Positions 30,264-63,582 of a DNA stretch of 64,000 bases are shown piece by piece. Numbering within the stretch: position 1 is the first letter of the stretch; each line of letters begins with the position of its first letter. This DNA is from Octopus vulgaris (taxonomy: Eukaryota): the NCBI GenBank assembly GCA_951406725.2, contig OX597820.1, forward strand, positions 22,630,001-22,694,000, in the 5' to 3' direction. The notes under the pieces were generated by a model that saw nothing but the letters and a program-made list of their open reading frames with translations, ran no database searches and was not told the origin of the DNA. Position numbers and translations under genes: made by a program.

Positions 30264-30970
30264 CAATCCTTTCTACTGGAAGCACAAGGCCTCAAATTTG
30301 GGGGAAGGGATCAAGTCAATTACATTGATCCCCAGTACGTAACTGGTACTAATTTTATCAACCCCGAAAGGATGAAAGGCAAAGTCGACTTCGGCGGAAT
30401 TTGAACAGACAAAATAACGCTAAGCATTTCGCCCGGTGTGCTAACAATTCTGCGAGCTTGCCGCCTTTTTGATAATAATAATAATAAATAATTATATAAA
30501 CAACTTCTTACATAGGCACAGTGCCTCAAATTTGGGGAAGAGGAGGAGAGACTAGTCAACTATATATCAATTCCAGTATTTCACTGGTACTTTATTTTAC
30601 TGACGTGACCCCCAACCCCCACTGCCAGAAGGATGAAAGCCAAAGCTGATTTTGATGCAATTTGAATTCAGAAACATGAAAAATGCTGGAAGAAACTACC
30701 ACAAGGCATTTCATCTGATATTCTAATGATTCTGCTAATAATAATAATAATGATAATAATTAGGCACAAGGCCAGCTATTCTGAAGGGAGGGAAGGGTTT
30801 AGTCAATTGCATCGACCCCTAGTACCTGACTGGTATTTATTTTATTTCCCCGCCATTTGCAGAGGGAAGAAAAGTGAACCTGACCATGGAAGGGTTTGAA
30901 TGTAAAAGCCAGAAAATATACCGCAAGGTATTTTTGTCTGATGCTGTAACGATCCAGCCAGCTCGCTGCC

Positions 30971-31006
<36 letters not shown>

Positions 31007-31460
31007 GTTTAAAATTTTGGCACAAGGCCAGCAATTTTTGGGAGGTAGATAAGTTGATACACTGACCTCAGTGTTCAAACTGGTACTTATCTATTGACCC
31101 CCCCACCCCCAAAGGATGAAAGCAAAGTCAACCTCGGGAGCATTTGAACCCAGAATGTAAAAGATGGATGAAATGCCGCTAAGCATTTTGTGCAGTGTGC
31201 TAATGATTCCGCCAGCTCACCAATAATAATAATAATAATAATAACGGCTTCAAATTTGTTTGGCACAAGGCCAGCAATTTCAGAGGAGGGGTAAGTTTAT
31301 TATATCAATTTCAGTATTCGAATGGTGCATTTATTCTTTTAATCCAAAAGGATGAAAGGCAAAGTCGACCTCGACAGAATTTGAACTCAGAACAAAAACA
31401 GACGAAATACTGCTAAGCATTTTGTCCGGTGTGCTAATGATTCTGCCAGCTTGCCACTTT
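29769..31460 (-). mobile_element. Head-to-tail array of seven MetaSINE-like (family B) copies separated by (AAT)n
   Basis: Copies at about 29769-29982, 30001-30216, 30267-30470, 30503-30737, 30761-30972, 31006-31222 and 31246-31460, all in the same orientation. Confidence 0.88.
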
Positions 31461-33693
31461 ATAATAATAATAATAAATTTAATGTTAGTTGTAATTACAA
31501 CATCTTTCTGTTTTATTATTACTATCATCATTATTTTAATTATTAATTACCGAGACTAGAAAACAAAGTGTGTTAAAGTTTTGAATGGTTTTGATATAGG
31601 TAGGAAGTTTTTCATTTTGTTTTGTTGCTGTTATTTTTTATCTCCATTTTATTTATTATTATTATTATTTTTTTCGCTGCTGCTAGTCACATAAACTACA
31701 CGCTTCTCTGTTAAAAGGTACATGAGAGCAAGAAAGGGGGAGGAGGTAGAGGAAGAGGAGAGAATGAGTGATGGAAGAAGAAGAAGAAGAAAATAGAAGG
31801 GAAAAAAAAGGTAAAAGTAAACAGAAGGGACAGCCTATATATTTGATGTTGGGGATTCATTCTGTCTCCTCTTGGAATGTTCCTTTGTTCATTGAAAGGA
31901 AGAGAGGTGGAAATTTCTGGAAATGAAAAAAAAAAAAGAAGAAGCAAAAAAGGTTGTTGTTGTTGCAGTTGCCTGTTATGTTTACTGGGTGTTGAATAAC
32001 GTTATATGTAATGCTTAGGGTATTGGATTTCCAGATTGTTGTTGTTGCTGTTGTTGTTGTTGTCGATAACTGATTGAATTTATTGAAAGAGTAACGTTTC
32101 AAATGTAATGGTTTTTTTTTCTTAATTTTTTTTTTTCCATTTTTTTTTTCGGTGCTGAAATGAGTCTAGTTTACAATTCTCTAACAGTGCATATTTACTT
32201 CACAAGAGCTAAAAAACAACAAAGTCACATGTAGCAGTGACTAAACTAATACAGTAAAGTAAGTCTAGATGGATTTTTTTTTTTTGTTTCAAAGAAATCA
32301 TTTTTTTTTTGTTTTTGAAATGTTTTTAAAGTTTTTAAAAGGTATCTAATAATACTTTTGTCATTATAAACTGGCGATCAGGATCTGCTAGGTACATGAT
32401 GATGGGTTTCAAATCCCTTCAAAAAGTACTCTATAATACACTATACATACCCCCATTCCAATTCAACTGTCTGAAAAGTTCTTTTGTTCTTTTTTAAATA
32501 TTATTATTATCATCATTATTATTTTGTAGTTCTTTTTCTTCTTTTATTTTTCCAGTTTTATTTCATGGAATAGTTGTGATATAACCATTTTTGTTTGTTT
32601 GCTTGTTATATTTATCTCTCTCTTTTTCTTTTTTTTTTTTATCACGCAAATTTGCAAATACTAGTAACACGAGCTCCTCACACAATGTGCAGAAGCAATG
32701 AGGCGGTATATGAGAAGCGGGCTGCTTGGATGTCAACACAGTTGACGAGGTCGGCCCACTATTAACAGACAAATAGACGGACAGCTATATGAGTATTTTT
32801 TTTTTGTTTTCTTTGAATGCAAGAGATTTCTTTCAAGACAAATGAAATGAAATGGAAAAATTTTTTTGGAAAAAAAAAAAAAAAAGATTTTCTCCATTAA
32901 ATATGGACGACAACACCTGCTGTCACGTACGATAGTTAGAGCATGCATACATCCACACATCCACACATTCGTACAACCTCCTTTGCACAGGCAAACATGC
33001 ATGTATGTACAGATACATGTGAATGCATACAAACATGCATGGATGCTTAAGTGCATGATGGTAATGTTTCTTTTTCTTTTTTCTTTTATTTTTCCATTTA
33101 TTTATTATTTTTTATACAGTTGCTCATATAAGTACGTACATCACAGCACATCCACGTTGCAATATAGAAAAAATGGGACAAATCAAAATTGCACTAGCTC
33201 AACTAGCGAAATGGGTCACTTAGCAGACGGACCTTACTGCCTTATCGGACCCTGGAATTAGTGATGTGGCACAACGGGAGGAGAGAAAAAAAAAAAGGGG
33301 AAAAAAAAAAGATGTTGGTATTATTTGTTGACTGCTTCCAGAAATGAGAAGTTGTTGTTGTTGTTGTTTGATCAATCAGTTTTGGAACAGTCCCAGCAAT
33401 TTTGACTTGAAGCAGTGTTGGTTGGAGGGTGAGATGCCAGTATGGCAAAGATATGGGGTTTTATAGGCACTGCCCTGATTATTACCCACAGACTGACCAG
33501 AGGTCAACTTGCTGTTGACAGCAGGATTAAAAGTGGGTGCATGTTTTCTTTTCACCAACATGTAGGCCATCACCACCACATTGGACACAGCAGTTTCAGG
33601 TTGGAAAAAAGACAGTCTGTGACCCTGCATGCAGATCGGCTACTGTCTAAAAACCTAGCATGAATAAACCGTAATAAGTACACATAGATATGA

Positions 33694-33966
33694 TCAGTAG
33701 TTGCGCATATTTTCTGTGGTCCGGCGAGACAATGACGAAGGATCAGGTCCTCGCCGGGTCCGCTGGGGTGACTGTTGCTGTCCTGCAAATGATTCCCCTG
33801 TTGTTGTTGTAGTAGTAGTAGTAGTTGTTGTTGTCGTAGTGGTGCTTGTTGATGCTGGTGTTGCCGACTCAACAGTTTCTTCTGTGGAACCTTCACGGCC
33901 TTTTGTATCCTTAGTTTTGAATTTTTTACGCCAAGATGGAGCACGTCTGAATTTCCCACCTTCGCC
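33694..33966 (-). CDS. PPFIA: liprin-alpha terminal coding exon (C-terminal tail)
   Basis: Long pyrimidine tract and ccag|GGC acceptor, phase 0. Translates GEGGKFRRAPSWRKKFKTKDTKGREGSTEE...(T)15...RRTTENMRNY*. FRRAPSWRKKF is the conserved post-SAM3 liprin-alpha motif. Confidence 0.92.
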   Translation of the reverse strand, partial: GEGGKFRRAPSWRKKFKTKDTKGREGSTEETVESATPASTSTTTTTTTTTTTTTTTGESFAGQQQSPQRTRRGPDPSSLSRRTTENMRNY

Positions 33967-35197
33967 CTGGATTCAAAAATGGAACAGGAAAAAAAAAAAA
34001 AAAAAAAAAAAGGAAAAGAGAAAATGATATAAATTTATTAATATTTTTGCAACAAAATGAATGACAGTGTTTAAATGTAAAAGATGCTGTAAAAGAAAAA
34101 AATTAAATAGATTAAAAAAATATGATAATAGCAACAAACTATATGTTGTAGAGAAGTGAATGACTTCGACGATGAAGAAGGAAGCAGCCAGTTTTCATCT
34201 CTGATTACTGAACAAGAAGCTACATCATTAACTAGACAAATTTTCGTAAACAAATAAGAAATAAAAGTTCCTTATGTTTGTCATTTTTTTTATTATATTT
34301 AGAAGATAACCGAAGATAGCAATGCAACATGTGAACAAATTTATTTTAACAAAGAATGTAAGGAGCTCTGTTACCAAGTGATGAGAAAAGAACCTCTAGT
34401 TAAGTACAATATGAAAATATTTGACAAAGAAAACTGATTCCAACTAATATAGTAAATGTATATGTAAAAGGAACAGAATGAGTTTCTGTCTAATAACACA
34501 CGCACACACACAAATTATATAGAAAGGAAAATAATCTTAAAGACATTCAAAAGATAGCCTGACAGCTAAATTAGTTGGAAGGTAACAATATAATAAACAG
34601 GAGACTTTTGATTGATTGATTGGAGGAAAAAGAAAAAGAGAGAGAGAGAAGCAGTGCTTGGGTAGGAGTGAGTAAGCCTCATCATTTTCTAATTTCTAAA
34701 ACCTAAATTAATCAATCACTGTACCAAATTTACCCCCAGTTCAATGTCACAATTGATGAAACATTCAATATATGAAAGTTTTCAATATTCCTGTGATGTT
34801 CATTTCTTCTATTTTAAGATGTGAATTACCATTTCCATAGCTTTGTTTTGTAACAAACTCCCACACACATACACTGCACACCCCAAGAACCCTGAAGATC
34901 CTTCCAAGAGCTTTCTGATTTACAGAGCGCATCAGAAAAATTTCCCCTATTTTATATGGCTATTGTTGTGGCACTAATGAAGTTAGGCAAGTGGCAATGG
35001 TGTCTGCATGTAGCTAATGTTTTACCATTTTCTTTTACAGTTACTATCATGGTTTGGACCAGTATGCTCCGTGTTTGCTGTTGAAACATTTACCAAGAAG
35101 GGTGAATGAGAGCAGTTTCTTTTTGCAGCACTTTAAACGTTCAGAAGAGGTGGGCAGACTTTCAAATGGATTGAGATTTGATTAAGATACTAATTAT

Positions 35198-40792: not shown

Positions 40793-42893
40793 AAAGGAAA
40801 TACAGATATCAAAATATAACAGAATTTTAAAAATATGGTGGTGAACCTCCCAACTTTGATCAGTGTTTGCTCATCTTTGTAATGACATACAGTGATAAAA
40901 TTTAATCAAGAGAGGAAATCTGGTGCACATAACATTTAACTAGTTCTAAACATCTTTAACCAGTTTGCTTTTCCATATTTTTTCTCATAATGGAATAAAT
41001 TTCATGATTCCCTTTCAAAATACACACACACACACCTTAATTAATTCACAGTGTATTTTTTTTAAAGATAATTCCCTCAGTTGTTAAAAGCTTCTTAAAC
41101 TACATCTTTTGCTTAAATTTCATTCAGAAAACCTTGGTCCTGAACAGCAATGTTATCAACACCAAAATATCTACTTAAAAAGGAAAATAAAAAAAAAAAA
41201 CAACAAAAAAACCTATCCAACATCAAAAAGAACACACCAAGAATGTTTACGTGGAGACTGTTTTGAGAATGAGGCAATAAAGCCACAGACAAAAACAGGT
41301 CTATTTAACACCAATGATATAACAGAAATCTTTGAATGAATTTAATTTTTTTTCTATGAAAGAAAGAGCAAATGAGCTGTTGTTTATACTGAATCCATTT
41401 TAGCAGGATGGAGGTAAAAAAACTCAGGTAAAACAGGAGTGTAGTATGTGCGTGCTTCAACTGAGTTCCCAAAGATAAGTGAAGAATAATATAATAAATA
41501 CATCAATTTACTTAAATAAATAGAAAAAAATATCTGAACTAAAAAAGAATGCATGGAAAATGAAAGAGATGGAAAGACATTTGTTTTACTAGATGTATAA
41601 ACTGCTGACACATTCCAACTGAAAAAATGATTTTATATCGATAAAGTTTCAACCTAAATTTAAAATTCTTAAAAAAGATGCAGCATTCTTTGAAAAAAAA
41701 AAATATGGATGAATTTTTTTTCTTTCAAATTAAACTTTGAATGGGATGTTTAAAAAGTATCAGAGAAAAAAAAATAATAAAGAAAAGGTAATTGAGCAGA
41801 AAGAGAGAAAGAGAGACAAAAGAAGAAACAAAACAATTGAAATGTTTTTCTCTCTTTTCTAAAAAAAATCTAGAATTAATAATTAAATGAATAAATTAAG
41901 CAAATAACAAAGTAAAAAAATGACATTTTTAAAACAGATGTCAACCAACCTTCCAGTAAAAGTGACAGGAGGTGAGGAGGTCACTGTTTTAATAAATGAG
42001 GAAGAAGAAGAAATGGTCATCGAAATGAGAGATTGTTTTTCTCTACTGATGATATGAAGTCAGGTAAGCAGTTAAGGAACTACTATGGATGGACTACTCA
42101 CCATTGAAGGGAGGAGGGAGTCACACTTAACACTGTATCAAAAGTCACTGGAAGTAGTTGGTAGGTCAGATCAAGTGCTCATCCCACGAGGGTGGTCCCT
42201 GTACGCTTAGCGGTAGCCTGCTGTGCACCTTGCAGAAAAAGTAGTAGCAGACTTCTAAGTGCATGGCAGAAATATATCACTTGTGACAACAGCTAGCATC
42301 ATCAGTAGTGGCAGCAGAAAGAGGAGGGCAACGACGATGTAGCAGGCAGCATGAGTGGCAACGATGACGAATTTGTATGCAGTACAAGAAATCTTTAGTG
42401 ACAAGGGTGGTGGTGGAGGTAGTGGTGGTTGGGGGCATTGGGGGTAGAGTTTGAGAGTGTTACAAGTGGGAGAGGGTTTCGAAATAAAAAAACAAGATGA
42501 CTGGTTGGTAGATATAAATTAATCATTTATTTGAGGAGATGAAGTTCAGATAATAGGAACAGATGAAAAAAAGAGTCATTCTCCACCAGGAGCAAATCGT
42601 GATGAAGAAAGATACAAATGACATGTCTGTTCTTTAAATGGAGATAATGGATAAAAAAACTTTTAAGTTTTTCCGTTTTCTTTGGCGTAAGATTAATTTA
42701 CTTTAATCTGAAAGGCTAGTGATACCGAATAAAGAAAACTATATTTTAGATGACAGTATTTTATTTTCTTAAAGAAATAATGTGCATCCTTTCACGGAAA
42801 ACTTTTGATAATTTTGCAAGCCTATTTTAGGATTAACCTTAACAAGTTAACATAAACTACTTTTAGATCACCAGCTAATCCATTTACTACTAA

Positions 42894-57393: not shown

Positions 57394-57462
57394 CTCATCC
57401 AAGCGGCGCTCAGTCCCTAAAGCAAGCATATTATTAAATTCACGTTCTAATAATTGTCGGGT
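57394..57462 (-). CDS. PPFIA: liprin-alpha exon (end of SAM3)
   Basis: TRQLLEREFNNMLALGTERRLDE. Acceptor ttctacag|ACC, donor GAG|gtaggt; 69 nt, phase 0 to 0. Confidence 0.95.
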
Positions 57463-57999
57463 CTGTAGAAAGAGAAGATAAAAGAAAATATATATATTAT
57501 ACATACATATATAAAAAAGAAGTTGTAATAAAGTGGACAGTTATAATCAATTTAAAATTACAATAAAAATATGAAAAGACTGAATGGAGACAAATGATTG
57601 AGAAAAAGTGTGATCCAAGTTAGTTGAATATATTATTTCAAGTAACTGTGTAGCTTCTGTTGAATTACCAAATACAGCCAATTTGATTTAATTGCAAAGC
57701 TTGTAATATGGGAATTATGTAATTAAATGGAATAGGCAATTAAGTAAATTTGCATAGGAGGCAGATAATTTACAAGATTTCAATATGTTGTATGTAGAAA
57801 AATAAAGTGGCTATATTACACATTTTGGATTAGATTGGATTGCCCATGTTCAGTCCACAGCAGAATGAAGGCCTCAGCATGTTCTCTCCACTAGCCATGG
57901 TCTGATGTGGAGGCTGTGAATTTGAGCTTGAGATCATACTGGTTTGATGAACCTACTCTGCCATACTGGCTCGGCATGGCTTGGTAGAGGGGTGCCCAA

Positions 58000-58609: not shown

Positions 58610-58785
58610 TTGTGTATTTTGAGTGGGGATTTGTAGAGCTAATGCCATACTGTTATGGTCAAAACTTTCATCCAGCGCTACCAGAGCTCCATGGACTCCA
58701 GATTCAAATAAGTTATTTGCGAATTCCTTCAACCCAATGGACTGAACCCATTTAATGACTCGTTCATTTGTCCAGACAAGTACAT
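58610..58785 (-). CDS. PPFIA: liprin-alpha exon (SAM3 domain)
   Basis: (D)[58 protein letters not shown]. Acceptor ttttgcag|AT, donor CAA|gtaagt; 176 nt, phase 1 to 0. Confidence 0.96.
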
Positions 58786-60834
58786 CTGCAAAAACAAGAG
58801 GAAAAGAATGAAAACCATATCATGGAACTAGGAAAGGAATAAAGGAAAAAAATCCCAAATAGTCAATAAAATCCAATGAAGTTTTAAACTATTTTTCATT
58901 TAGTGTTTCAAAGACAGAGCAAAAAGACATTTTGCCCGAACAGTGTCCTACTAGCTATACAAAAAAAAGATGGATTGGATATGAGTAATATTTCATTTGG
59001 AATGTTGAAATGTATTTTTTATGAAACTGAAATTTAACTAGGGACCACCTATCAGTCCTTCTGTGTCACATCAGGTACTTAGAGTGCAGGAAAGGCTATT
59101 TGGTTAAGACATTTATTTGCTTAGCAACCACATGGTTCCAGGTTCAATCCTACAGGATGAAACCACCTTCAGCAAGTGTCTTTTACCATGACTTCAAATC
59201 AACCAATACCTTACGAGCTAAATCTGGTAGACGAAAACTGTGTGGAAGCTCACTGTGTGCACTTGTCTGTGTGTGTGTGTGTGCATGCACATACACATGC
59301 ATATATATCACCATCATGCTGGTCTGAGCTGAATGGTTTGACAGGAGCCACACCAAGTTTCACTGCCTGCTTTGGCATGGTCTCTATAGCTGGTATGTGT
59401 TGGACATTTTGAGAAGGAGTCAACAAGTCAGAGGAGTGTGTCGTGCTTCAAAGTCTGCTATGATATGGTTTCTGTAGCTGGATGCCTTTACTAACACCAA
59501 ACACTTACAATGGACTTTACAGCGTACAGGTAATCTGCAGGATGCAAACCCCACTCCTTGACTGAATACAGAAAAGAGGGAGGTAGCTTTTTTTGTTAGT
59601 TGTTGAGATGTTAAAGTATGAAAGAAAGGACATTAACAGGGTTTTTTTTTTGCTGTGGAGGACAAACATTATATAAGGTCAGGTCAGAGTAATCAAGGTG
59701 GAGCTGGGAAGAGAGACAAAGATAGTGGTGATGACATGTTAGAGTGTACCTTTAAGGTACATGAAGGTGAAAAGCAGTGAGTGTAAGGACAGAAGATTGG
59801 GAAAGGATGGATGGATAGAGGTTGTAAGAGTGTGTGGAGAGAGTAAGAGAGAGACATTACAAGCTTCCGGTGTCCATTTCCATCATAAGTCATTAGTCAT
59901 TAAACTGGTGCGTTCTAACAAGAATACAATTTGGGCAGAATGAATTCTGCTCAAATTGCTTAGAAACTCCCTTCTCACTTTTGCCATTTGCAGATGCAGG
60001 AAACCAAGGATTGGTTTGTTAGAAATGTATGATCAACAACACTTGTTCACAAAATATATGAGCCTTTTCCTTTCTCCTATTTGGGTAGTCCACATTAATC
60101 CATGAGGAGCATCAGGCTGGTTTCCTGGTCCATCCCAAGATTACTCATTTTTGGCATCTGAGTGAATTGGAGCAATATCAAATGAAGTGCTTTACACAAA
60201 AACTCAATGCACCGCCCAGTCCAGGAATTGAAACCAAAATCTTATGGTCATGAGTCCAACACCCTAACCACTAAGCTATGCACTGGTATTTAGCTGTGCT
60301 ATTTCCATCTCCACAAGATAAATTCATAATTTTTTTTATCATAGTAAGACAGATACACCTCCATATATAAATATACCAGTGGGCCATTTCCTATTTATAC
60401 CTTAAAATAGTTAATCTATTAATCCGTTCAGTTATCCAATTATTCACTTGCTTTTCTTAACAGCCATTTTTCCATCCCAGAAATTTCTGGATGGATGTTG
60501 TTCTTGTCACCAACTCTTACTTGTTTTTCAAACAAAGGATTCATTTTTTATTTTGCTGGTTTTAGAAAGCCAAGACTGACTGGTCATAATGTCAACAAGG
60601 AAAGTAAACATCATTTCACTATTTTACTCATATGGAGACAAGTGATACTGTGGAATGTCAGCATTTGTGTACATACACACAATATGCTCCATATATCAAT
60701 TCCACTCAGAAGGAGTTGGTCAACCCAGGGCTAGTGTAGAAGACTCAAGGTAGTGCTCAGTGGGACTGTGAAGTGAACTTCTTAGCCACAGAATAATGCT
60801 CATGCCTTTGAGAAAATAAAAAAAAAAACAGACC

Positions 60835-61338: not shown

Positions 61339-61436
61339 CTTTCATTTCAGACGAACTCTCTTCTCGGCGTCTTTCTAATTCTTTTCTATCATAATTTATT
61401 TTTTTCAAACTATTTATTCCATATTGTAAGCTTGTT
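61339..61436 (-). CDS. PPFIA: liprin-alpha exon (SAM2 end and linker)
   Basis: (R)TSLQYGINSLKKINYDRKELERRREESSSEMK(D). Acceptor ttttag|A, donor G|gtcagt; 98 nt, phase 2 to 1, compatible with both neighbours. Confidence 0.95.
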
Positions 61437-61866
61437 CTAAAAATAAAGTTATTAAAAATAACGAAGTGATAATTAGTTATAAATGGCGAGTAATTGTCTT
61501 CATGCAGTATTAATTACAAAGACAAAATAGTTGATTAAGTCATATTAGATAAGACCAGTTCTGTCATTAAATTCTTTTCTTTCTTCAGAGAAGTTAAAAT
61601 TTTCAAAAAAAATAAAATAAAATAAAATTTAATAATAGAATTCAAGAAATTAAGATTAATCACCACATGATAATTAATTGAACGAAAAACATATTTACAC
61701 AGAAATAGCTGCTTCATCACAAATGAGTGAACCATCATGTGTGAATAAAGATTTTAATCAAAACATAATGACAGGATTTTAAATAAATCTTCTAATTGTC
61801 ATCCTATTTTGGAAGTTACAGCACTGGGACTGATAGCAAAACTGTGTTTCTGACTGTGGTCCCTGT

Positions 61867-63262: not shown

Positions 63263-63406
63263 AAGATTAAAACTAATCAAAAAAAAAAAAAAAGGGAAGC
63301 ATCTCGCGTTTCCAGTCCAGATTATATTGGGTAACACAAACAACAGCATTTAAAAAAATAAATAATGAATAAAAATAAAATAAAATAAAGTTTAATTTAA
63401 ACTCAC

Positions 63407-63582
63407 CTGTGGAAGCTATCTACCATTTTTAGCTGACCACGTAAATCTTTTTTCGTCAAATGATCTAGCATCCGTGCATCCACTAGGCATTCCATAAACG
63501 TGCTCCTGTACTGTGGCAGACCCAGACTTGGCAACCATTCATTGCCTATCCATTCATGGTTCATATCACCAAATGCCAAAGG
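63407..63582 (-). CDS. PPFIA: liprin-alpha exon (SAM2 domain); gene continues beyond the right edge of the window
   Basis: Translates [58 protein letters not shown](R), recognisable as liprin-alpha SAM2. Acceptor ttattaaag|CCT, donor AG|gtgagt; 176 nt, phase 0 to 2. Confidence 0.96.

Follow-up and report, generated by a model that had tools for sequence, protein, structure and literature searches.

Octopus liprin-alpha carries, twelve codons behind the stop codon of its terminal exon and in the same frame, the tripeptide YSC followed by a second stop. We consider it somewhat probable that this stretch is untranslated 3' UTR, which matches the PDZ-binding motif of other liprin-alpha proteins by coincidence. 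For such a hidden copy of the motif, coincidence is more likely than a switch, and if the copy is real, readthrough of the stop is a more likely route to it than editing. All positions given below refer to the window, i.e. the whole stretch of 64,000 nucleotides of Octopus vulgaris DNA that was analyzed.

The gene is identified by homology as an octopod liprin-alpha, in agreement with the preliminary description of this DNA. Four upstream exons were 100% identical in tblastn to Octopus bimaculoides P0122/P0123 and 97-100% identical to the liprin-alpha of Argonauta (P0121). The encoded tandem C-terminal SAM region is orthologous to that of liprin-alpha and is followed by an RRAPSWRKKF tail, and the best named matches are liprin-alpha proteins. 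The features of the locus are:

63406 to 63582, minus strand: liprin-alpha coding exon, SAM region (tblastn, 100% to P0003, P0121 and P0122).
61340 to 61438, minus strand: liprin-alpha coding exon (tblastn, 91-100%).
58610 to 58786, minus strand: liprin-alpha coding exon, SAM_2 family region (homolog search, tblastn).
57394 to 57465, minus strand: last constitutive coding exon, ending in ERRLDE (tblastn; joined to 33966 in X5 and X18 contigs).
42102 to 42228, minus strand: 127-nt cassette exon, VHSRLPLSVQGPPSWDEHLI then TGA (42168-42166), a second tail without YSC (tblastn; contigs of X5 and X18 join it to the terminal exon).
33697 to 33966, minus strand: coding part of the terminal exon, GEGGKFRRAPSW...TTENMRNY (tblastn, splice contigs, alignment).
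33694 to 33696, minus strand: first stop TGA, which takes the place of the Ser in ancestral RTYSC, with adenosine context G-A-U and U as +4 base (sequence, alignment).
33658 to 33693, minus strand: in-frame second frame of 12 codons, SYLCVLITVYSC, a candidate only (open frame, AG scan, background comparison).
33655 to 33657, minus strand: second stop TAG (sequence).
33611 to 33647, minus strand: predicted hairpin AGACAG(U)...(A)CUGUCU, starting 47 nt past the TGA (folding).
33085 to 33106, minus strand: earliest AATAAA hexamers after both stops (33106 and 33090), candidate poly(A) signals (sequence).

On the minus strand, the terminal exon reads GEGGKFRRAPSWRKKF...TTENMRNY from its start at 33966 and closes with ATG CGC AAC TAC TGA, where the TGA occupies 33696-33694 and its A is position 33694. 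Twelve sense codons and the TAG (33657-33655) follow, so that our re-reading of this strand reproduced the earlier reading exactly. The stretch is single-copy in the 2.8-Gb genome. The extension is U-rich and hydrophobic, its mean hydropathy of 1.7 ranking in the top 7% of the background; its YSC is preceded by ITV, and it is unlike the polar stretch that precedes RTYSC in fish and Owenia. Within the tail exon, a run of a Thr-codon trinucleotide (window 33851-33793, minus strand) varies in length among the cephalopod-type proteins P0004, P0121 and P0200.

In contigs of runs X5 and X18, which stem from two studies, two different exons are spliced to the acceptor at 33966: the one at 57465-57394 and the cassette at 42228-42102. 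Skipping and inclusion of the cassette had similar contig depth (15.0 and 13.4; 25.4 and 19.6), depth being a poor measure of expression. When the cassette is skipped, the tail ends in ...MRNY, and when it is included, the tail becomes VHSRLPLSVQGPPSWDEHLI (...DEHLI) and then stops; either spliced form must pass a stop before YSC. The stop of the cassette tail precedes the last junction by 64 nt, which we take to be a borderline position for nonsense-mediated decay. O. bimaculoides and P0003, a protein 95-98% identical to octopod sequences, share the 20-residue cassette peptide without a single difference. As judged from these comparisons, coleoids have added a conserved cassette tail without the YSC motif. 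The cassette closes with the three bases ATG, which continue in frame into the terminal exon, and protein P0200 starts with M-GEGG; this start suggests that the same junction of cassette and terminal exon exists in another coleoid.

The motif itself is well described in vertebrates. In vertebrate liprin-alpha, VRTYSC serves as a class II ligand for GRIP PDZ6, a binding that the preliminary description had stated correctly, and vertebrates produce liprin-alpha with and without it through splicing (PMC13311821, PMC8044993). Judging from fly and worm, PMC8044993 regards the motif as a vertebrate gain. Three proteins of the annelid Owenia fusiformis (P0013, P0176 and P0177) end in ERTYSC and fish proteins end in VRTYSC. 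Because the Owenia proteins carry RTYSC, it is not restricted to vertebrates, and contrary to PMC8044993 these tails make it more likely that RTYSC is bilaterian-old and was repeatedly lost. Insect and crustacean liprin-alpha matches also end without the motif. The protein P0084 of the nemertean Lineus ends in RTPNC.

We tabulated one tail per taxon, hand-picked from homolog searches. This yielded 24 mollusc-type tails, 18 from named species (including chiton, bivalves, gastropods and Argonauta) and 6 others. The same alignment column as octopus MRNY is the end of 21 of the 24; Aplysia aligns ambiguously, two tails continue as RTFSQ, and none of the 24 ends in YSC. When the final four residues of each of the 22 short tails were scored against ERTY/VRTY, the result was +6.1/+7.5, compared with -2.7 to -6.8 in the other four registers. 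By this alignment, RNY corresponds to the RTY of RTYSC and the octopus stop sits at the Ser position. The motif was thus cut by two residues early in molluscs, probably before chitons, bivalves and cephalopods split. Since the original motif was truncated in place, the YSC further downstream would be a second copy, which needs duplication or convergence. Annotation by its nature closes a protein at its first stop, so the tails date the stop and cannot exclude readthrough. The bivalve-type proteins P0209, P0212, P0222 and P0223 continue as RTFSQ or RTFSQQDIIDI and are the sole mollusc-type tails seen past the conserved stop position.

An in-frame YSC-stop is also what a recently cut tail would leave behind, and the TGA might in principle be an assembly error, a polymorphism or a nonsense change that recently shortened a longer tail. 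The first two possibilities, raised in the preliminary description, were not borne out, as Argonauta and two coleoid-type proteins end at the same residue. Furthermore, of 66 words sampled from 33400-33970, 18 runs contain every one and two contain 98%, although the words do not necessarily overlap the stop; runs with these words come from 8 studies (7 if one is the source of the assembly), and none of them is listed as RNA, the run labels being guesses. Given the shared end column and this run support, an assembly error or a nonsense change of recent date is very improbable, and we regard the whole explanation as largely refuted.

How far can chance account for the YSC-stop? In DNA of the same genome, 6 of 31,673 stop-to-stop segments finish with it, the present one included, and 15 of the 31,673 finish with [YF]SC-stop. 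The BLOSUM score of the final 4-6 residues was reached by 3 to 37 of these segments. A Markov simulation gave a chance of 0.5-4 in 10,000 for YSC-stop, and for its occurrence at the very next in-frame stop the chance is ~2 in 10,000 (1-12 in 10,000, depending on the definition). On the minus strand, the window and the DNA beyond it contain 8,973 stops, of which three are YSC-stops; two of these three lie in liprin-alpha introns (59950-59915 and 62718-62632). An in-frame SC-stop also occurs far down the UTR of the bivalve-type locus L003. No other exon ending in [YF]SC-stop was found in a usable place in the window and 100 kb beyond, or in the 133 kb downstream. RTYSL-stop matches in and near the window were considered as a motif exon and rejected, as they come from a dispersed repeat. 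This repeat, whose translation reads ...PRTYSL-stop, is a chance mimic with seven copies in 164 kb (window 4744-4652 and 198-172, minus strand; L068, L070, L073 and L075). Elsewhere in the window, an 894-codon open frame (8581-5900, minus strand) resembles by eye a LINE endonuclease/reverse transcriptase.

A putative partner for the motif is encoded in the octopus genome. A GRIP ortholog lies at G000:C1:129253170-129366800 (L045, L039 and L054-L062), with exons for several PDZ domains and both halves of PDZ6; its PDZ1 matches 2QT5 (E 1e-22) and its PDZ6 matches 1N7E/1N7F (E 4e-13). PDZ6 is split over two exons and looks intact, the first-half exon carrying the GVLGITISG loop. With a C-terminal Y-S-C and a GRIP PDZ6 in the same organism, the tail would by its sequence qualify as a class II GRIP PDZ6 ligand, only if it is translated. 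The hidden tail is a respectable candidate because YSC-stop is rare by chance and GRIP PDZ6 is present in the genome.

Conservation of the extension frame, for which the preliminary description had proposed mollusc 3' ends, was not seen in a comparison that comprised two second frames, both from bivalves and thus non-cephalopod; both are unrelated to that of octopus. A metagenome scan for related sequence returned two bivalve-type loci: in L003 the first stop is TAA, followed by the four codons IIAV and TAA TAA, and in L002 it is TAG, with the sequence ending 7 nt later. An oyster-type second frame reads TGA, RTTECVTNH, TGA; we derived it by hand by comparing code-4 gene calls of two frames, given that P0208, a protein from a named oyster, stops at HMMNY. 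First stops across molluscs are therefore mixed, with TGA in octopus and the oyster-type sequence, TAG in L002 and TAA in L003. According to PMC5100048, mixed first stops count against readthrough, a rule derived for much closer species than these molluscs, and old genes may acquire readthrough or lose it. The similarity between octopus and L003 UTR DNA was no better than in shuffles (101 of 300 reach it). Scans of prokaryote genomes and viruses gave no match to the region behind the stop, nine readings of the region in other frames or code 4 were absent from the protein collection, and an Atlas search returned only SAM clusters below 0.9. Oyster-type proteins P0202-P0204, P0213-P0218 and P0220, which read HMMNYWRTTECVTNHW... 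/ HMMNYW..., were considered as products of stop-to-Trp editing and dismissed as code-4 calls, because P0203 and P0220, which are other frames of the same DNA, make other W residues TGA. Gene calls on animal contigs with TGA read as Trp can mimic stop-loss editing or readthrough in the protein collection.

The extension could be opened in several ways, of which ADAR editing of UGA to UGI, read as Trp in neural mRNA, had been put forward in the preliminary description. Coleoids do recode neural mRNA heavily (PMC4384741, PMC9068888), and a single edit would suffice. However, ADAR favours 5' U/A and 3' G in a duplex, and the adenosine of this stop stands in G-A-U; every metazoan studied, O. bimaculoides included, strongly disfavours a 5' G, and most disfavour a 3' U (PMC9989829). 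A33694 is moreover predicted to be unpaired in longer folds (pairing probability 0.01-0.02 when 301-907 nt are folded; 0.28 with 151 nt), and its best duplex within 10 kb, with 16 pairs and none on the 5' side, was reached by 6 of 40 control adenosines. The two local pairings suggested earlier fared differently: the AGACAGU/ACUGUCU hairpin is predicted with pair probabilities of 0.95-1.0, whereas CUACUG/CAGUAG over the stop is outcompeted, and the region as a whole folds no better than shuffles (z = -0.13). Stop-to-Trp edits have been called non-existent in squid proteomics, based on an ORF-derived site list from earlier coding-sequence tables (bioRxiv 10.64898/2025.12.15.694494). Contigs of runs X5, X18, X21 and X23 placed on 33330-33985 left position 33694 uncovered, with X21 (organism D) reaching 33330-33422 only and X23 contributing nothing, so these contigs weigh neither way on editing. 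No protein ending in NYW-SYLC... was among the 10, 7 and 8 matches of three homolog searches. Liprin terms were absent from the supplement files examined for PMC8382921, PMC9068888, PMC4384741 and PMC9989829, the full site tables lying mostly outside these files. With its disfavoured neighbours and an adenosine predicted unpaired, we consider editing highly improbable. The same holds for a non-canonical acceptor (e.g. AC, at two AC dinucleotides in the extension) or a microexon that brings a YSC-ending frame into some mRNAs. Vertebrate liprin-alpha switches its motif by splicing (PMC8044993) and the octopus gene splices its tail alternatively; yet a dinucleotide scan of the 42 nt after the TGA found a single AG, inside the final TAG, so no canonical acceptor reaches the extension, as had been claimed. 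No U12-like signal was recognized by eye, and the sole junctions seen enter the terminal exon at 33966. UGA as a Sec codon was rejected as well, since an Rfam search of 30500-34100 at E up to 5 gave 9 weak matches, none of them to a SECIS family.

The contest is thus between functional readthrough and coincidence. A near-cognate tRNA, inserting Trp, Cys or Arg, might decode the UGA, likely in neurons, such that a minority of the protein gains 13 residues ending in YSC, the GRIP PDZ6 ligand; such a tail could have arisen from the old motif by a short duplication, or by convergence within cephalopods. We view this as somewhat unlikely, but as the strongest competitor. The open second frame, explained neither by splicing nor by a recent nonsense change, is what readthrough calls for. 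YSC-stop is rare by chance and identical to the motif in annelid and fish orthologs, which is older than vertebrates, and no alternative usable YSC exon exists in the window or 100 kb beyond. UGA is the commonest readthrough stop (PMC5100048) and occurs in the oyster-type sequence too, vertebrates regulate the same motif, by splicing (PMC13311821, PMC8044993), and neuronal readthrough reaches ~30% in fly kelch (bioRxiv 10.1101/2020.06.22.165522). GRIP with its intact-looking PDZ6 fits as well, but its presence by itself does not discriminate. Against readthrough stand the differing extensions of two bivalves, the mixed first stops and the hydrophobic, U-rich extension. The stop context is UGA-UCAU rather than UGA-C or UGA-CUAG (PMC5868278, PMC5100048), UGA and a +4 C being enriched in readthrough (PMC5100048); the +4 U, already recognized as not the strongest context, was seen again. 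The hairpin begins 47 nt out, compared to 8 and 31 nt in kelch (bioRxiv 10.1101/2020.06.22.165522), and has the above z of -0.13. A leaky context, either UGA-C / UGA-CUAG or a proximal stem-loop, is thus lacking, though it is not required in every known case. Among 52 eukaryotes, abundant readthrough was reported only in Pancrustacea, and the main text of that study names no mollusc (PMC5100048). Octopus ribosomes reportedly decode more accurately, according to a preprint that does not address stop codons (PMC13321053). Our literature searches found no report of liprin readthrough. Taking a readthrough prior of 1-2% for the gene, unmeasured in molluscs, times a 1-2% chance of the exact YSC, both our own estimates, gives the same order as the chance of 2-5 in 10,000, so on the motif alone we judge the odds to be close to even. 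In favor of coincidence we count the register, the shared end column, the differing second frames, the weak context, the hydrophobic extension and the chance YSC-stops in introns; against it we count the rarity of YSC-stop, its match to the motif of annelid and fish orthologs, the UGA stop and GRIP PDZ6 in the genome.

If the match is indeed coincidental, the protein from the terminal exon would end at MRNY, with ordinary termination at UGA-U, and any leak past the UGA would presumably be background-level and unselected. Octopus liprin-alpha would then work without a GRIP ligand, like fly and worm liprin-alpha. The competing scenario, in which cephalopods regained, or kept by duplication, the YSC tail cut off in molluscs and express it only on UGA readthrough, as an on/off PDZ ligand on a scaffold of the active zone that is controlled at the level of translation, is a possibility that falls short of being probable. 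If true, it would represent functional readthrough in a mollusc nervous system, the first in a mollusc as far as our searches reach, with a PDZ ligand gated at the ribosome. A subset of liprin-alpha would be tied to GRIP-dependent receptor traffic, and readthrough would do what vertebrates do by splicing. Even if the extension is not translated, the locus remains informative with regard to RTYSC in an annelid, its loss in molluscs via a stop two residues early and the coleoid cassette tail.

The octopus gene can be compared to four known systems. It resembles vertebrate liprin-alpha and its complex with GRIP1 PDZ6 (PDB 1N7F) in the orthologous gene and exon, the terminal YSC, the presence of GRIP PDZ6 and the alternative tails. 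Unlike vertebrate VRTYSC, however, the in-register octopus motif is cut (MRNY-stop), and the YSC behind the stop is preceded by ITV instead of VRT and reached by no spliced form. With the readthrough of peroxisomal signals in malate and lactate dehydrogenase (UGA_CUAG; PMC5868278) it shares a UGA first stop, a short second frame and a terminal motif as the proposed payload; in octopus, the context is UGA-UCAU without CUAG, and the payload would be a PDZ ligand. Drosophila kelch, headcase and Ptp10D, which undergo neuronal readthrough (bioRxiv 10.1101/2020.06.22.165522), are likewise neural genes with a UGA and a predicted downstream hairpin, but the octopus hairpin starts 47 nt past the stop and shuffled sequence folds just as stably, and abundant readthrough has not been reported outside Pancrustacea (PMC5100048). 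Finally, the main octopus product ends without the YSC ligand, and the motif is likewise missing from Dliprin-alpha of the fly and SYD-2 of the worm (PMC8044993); unlike these, molluscs keep the tail exon and lose its last two residues only.
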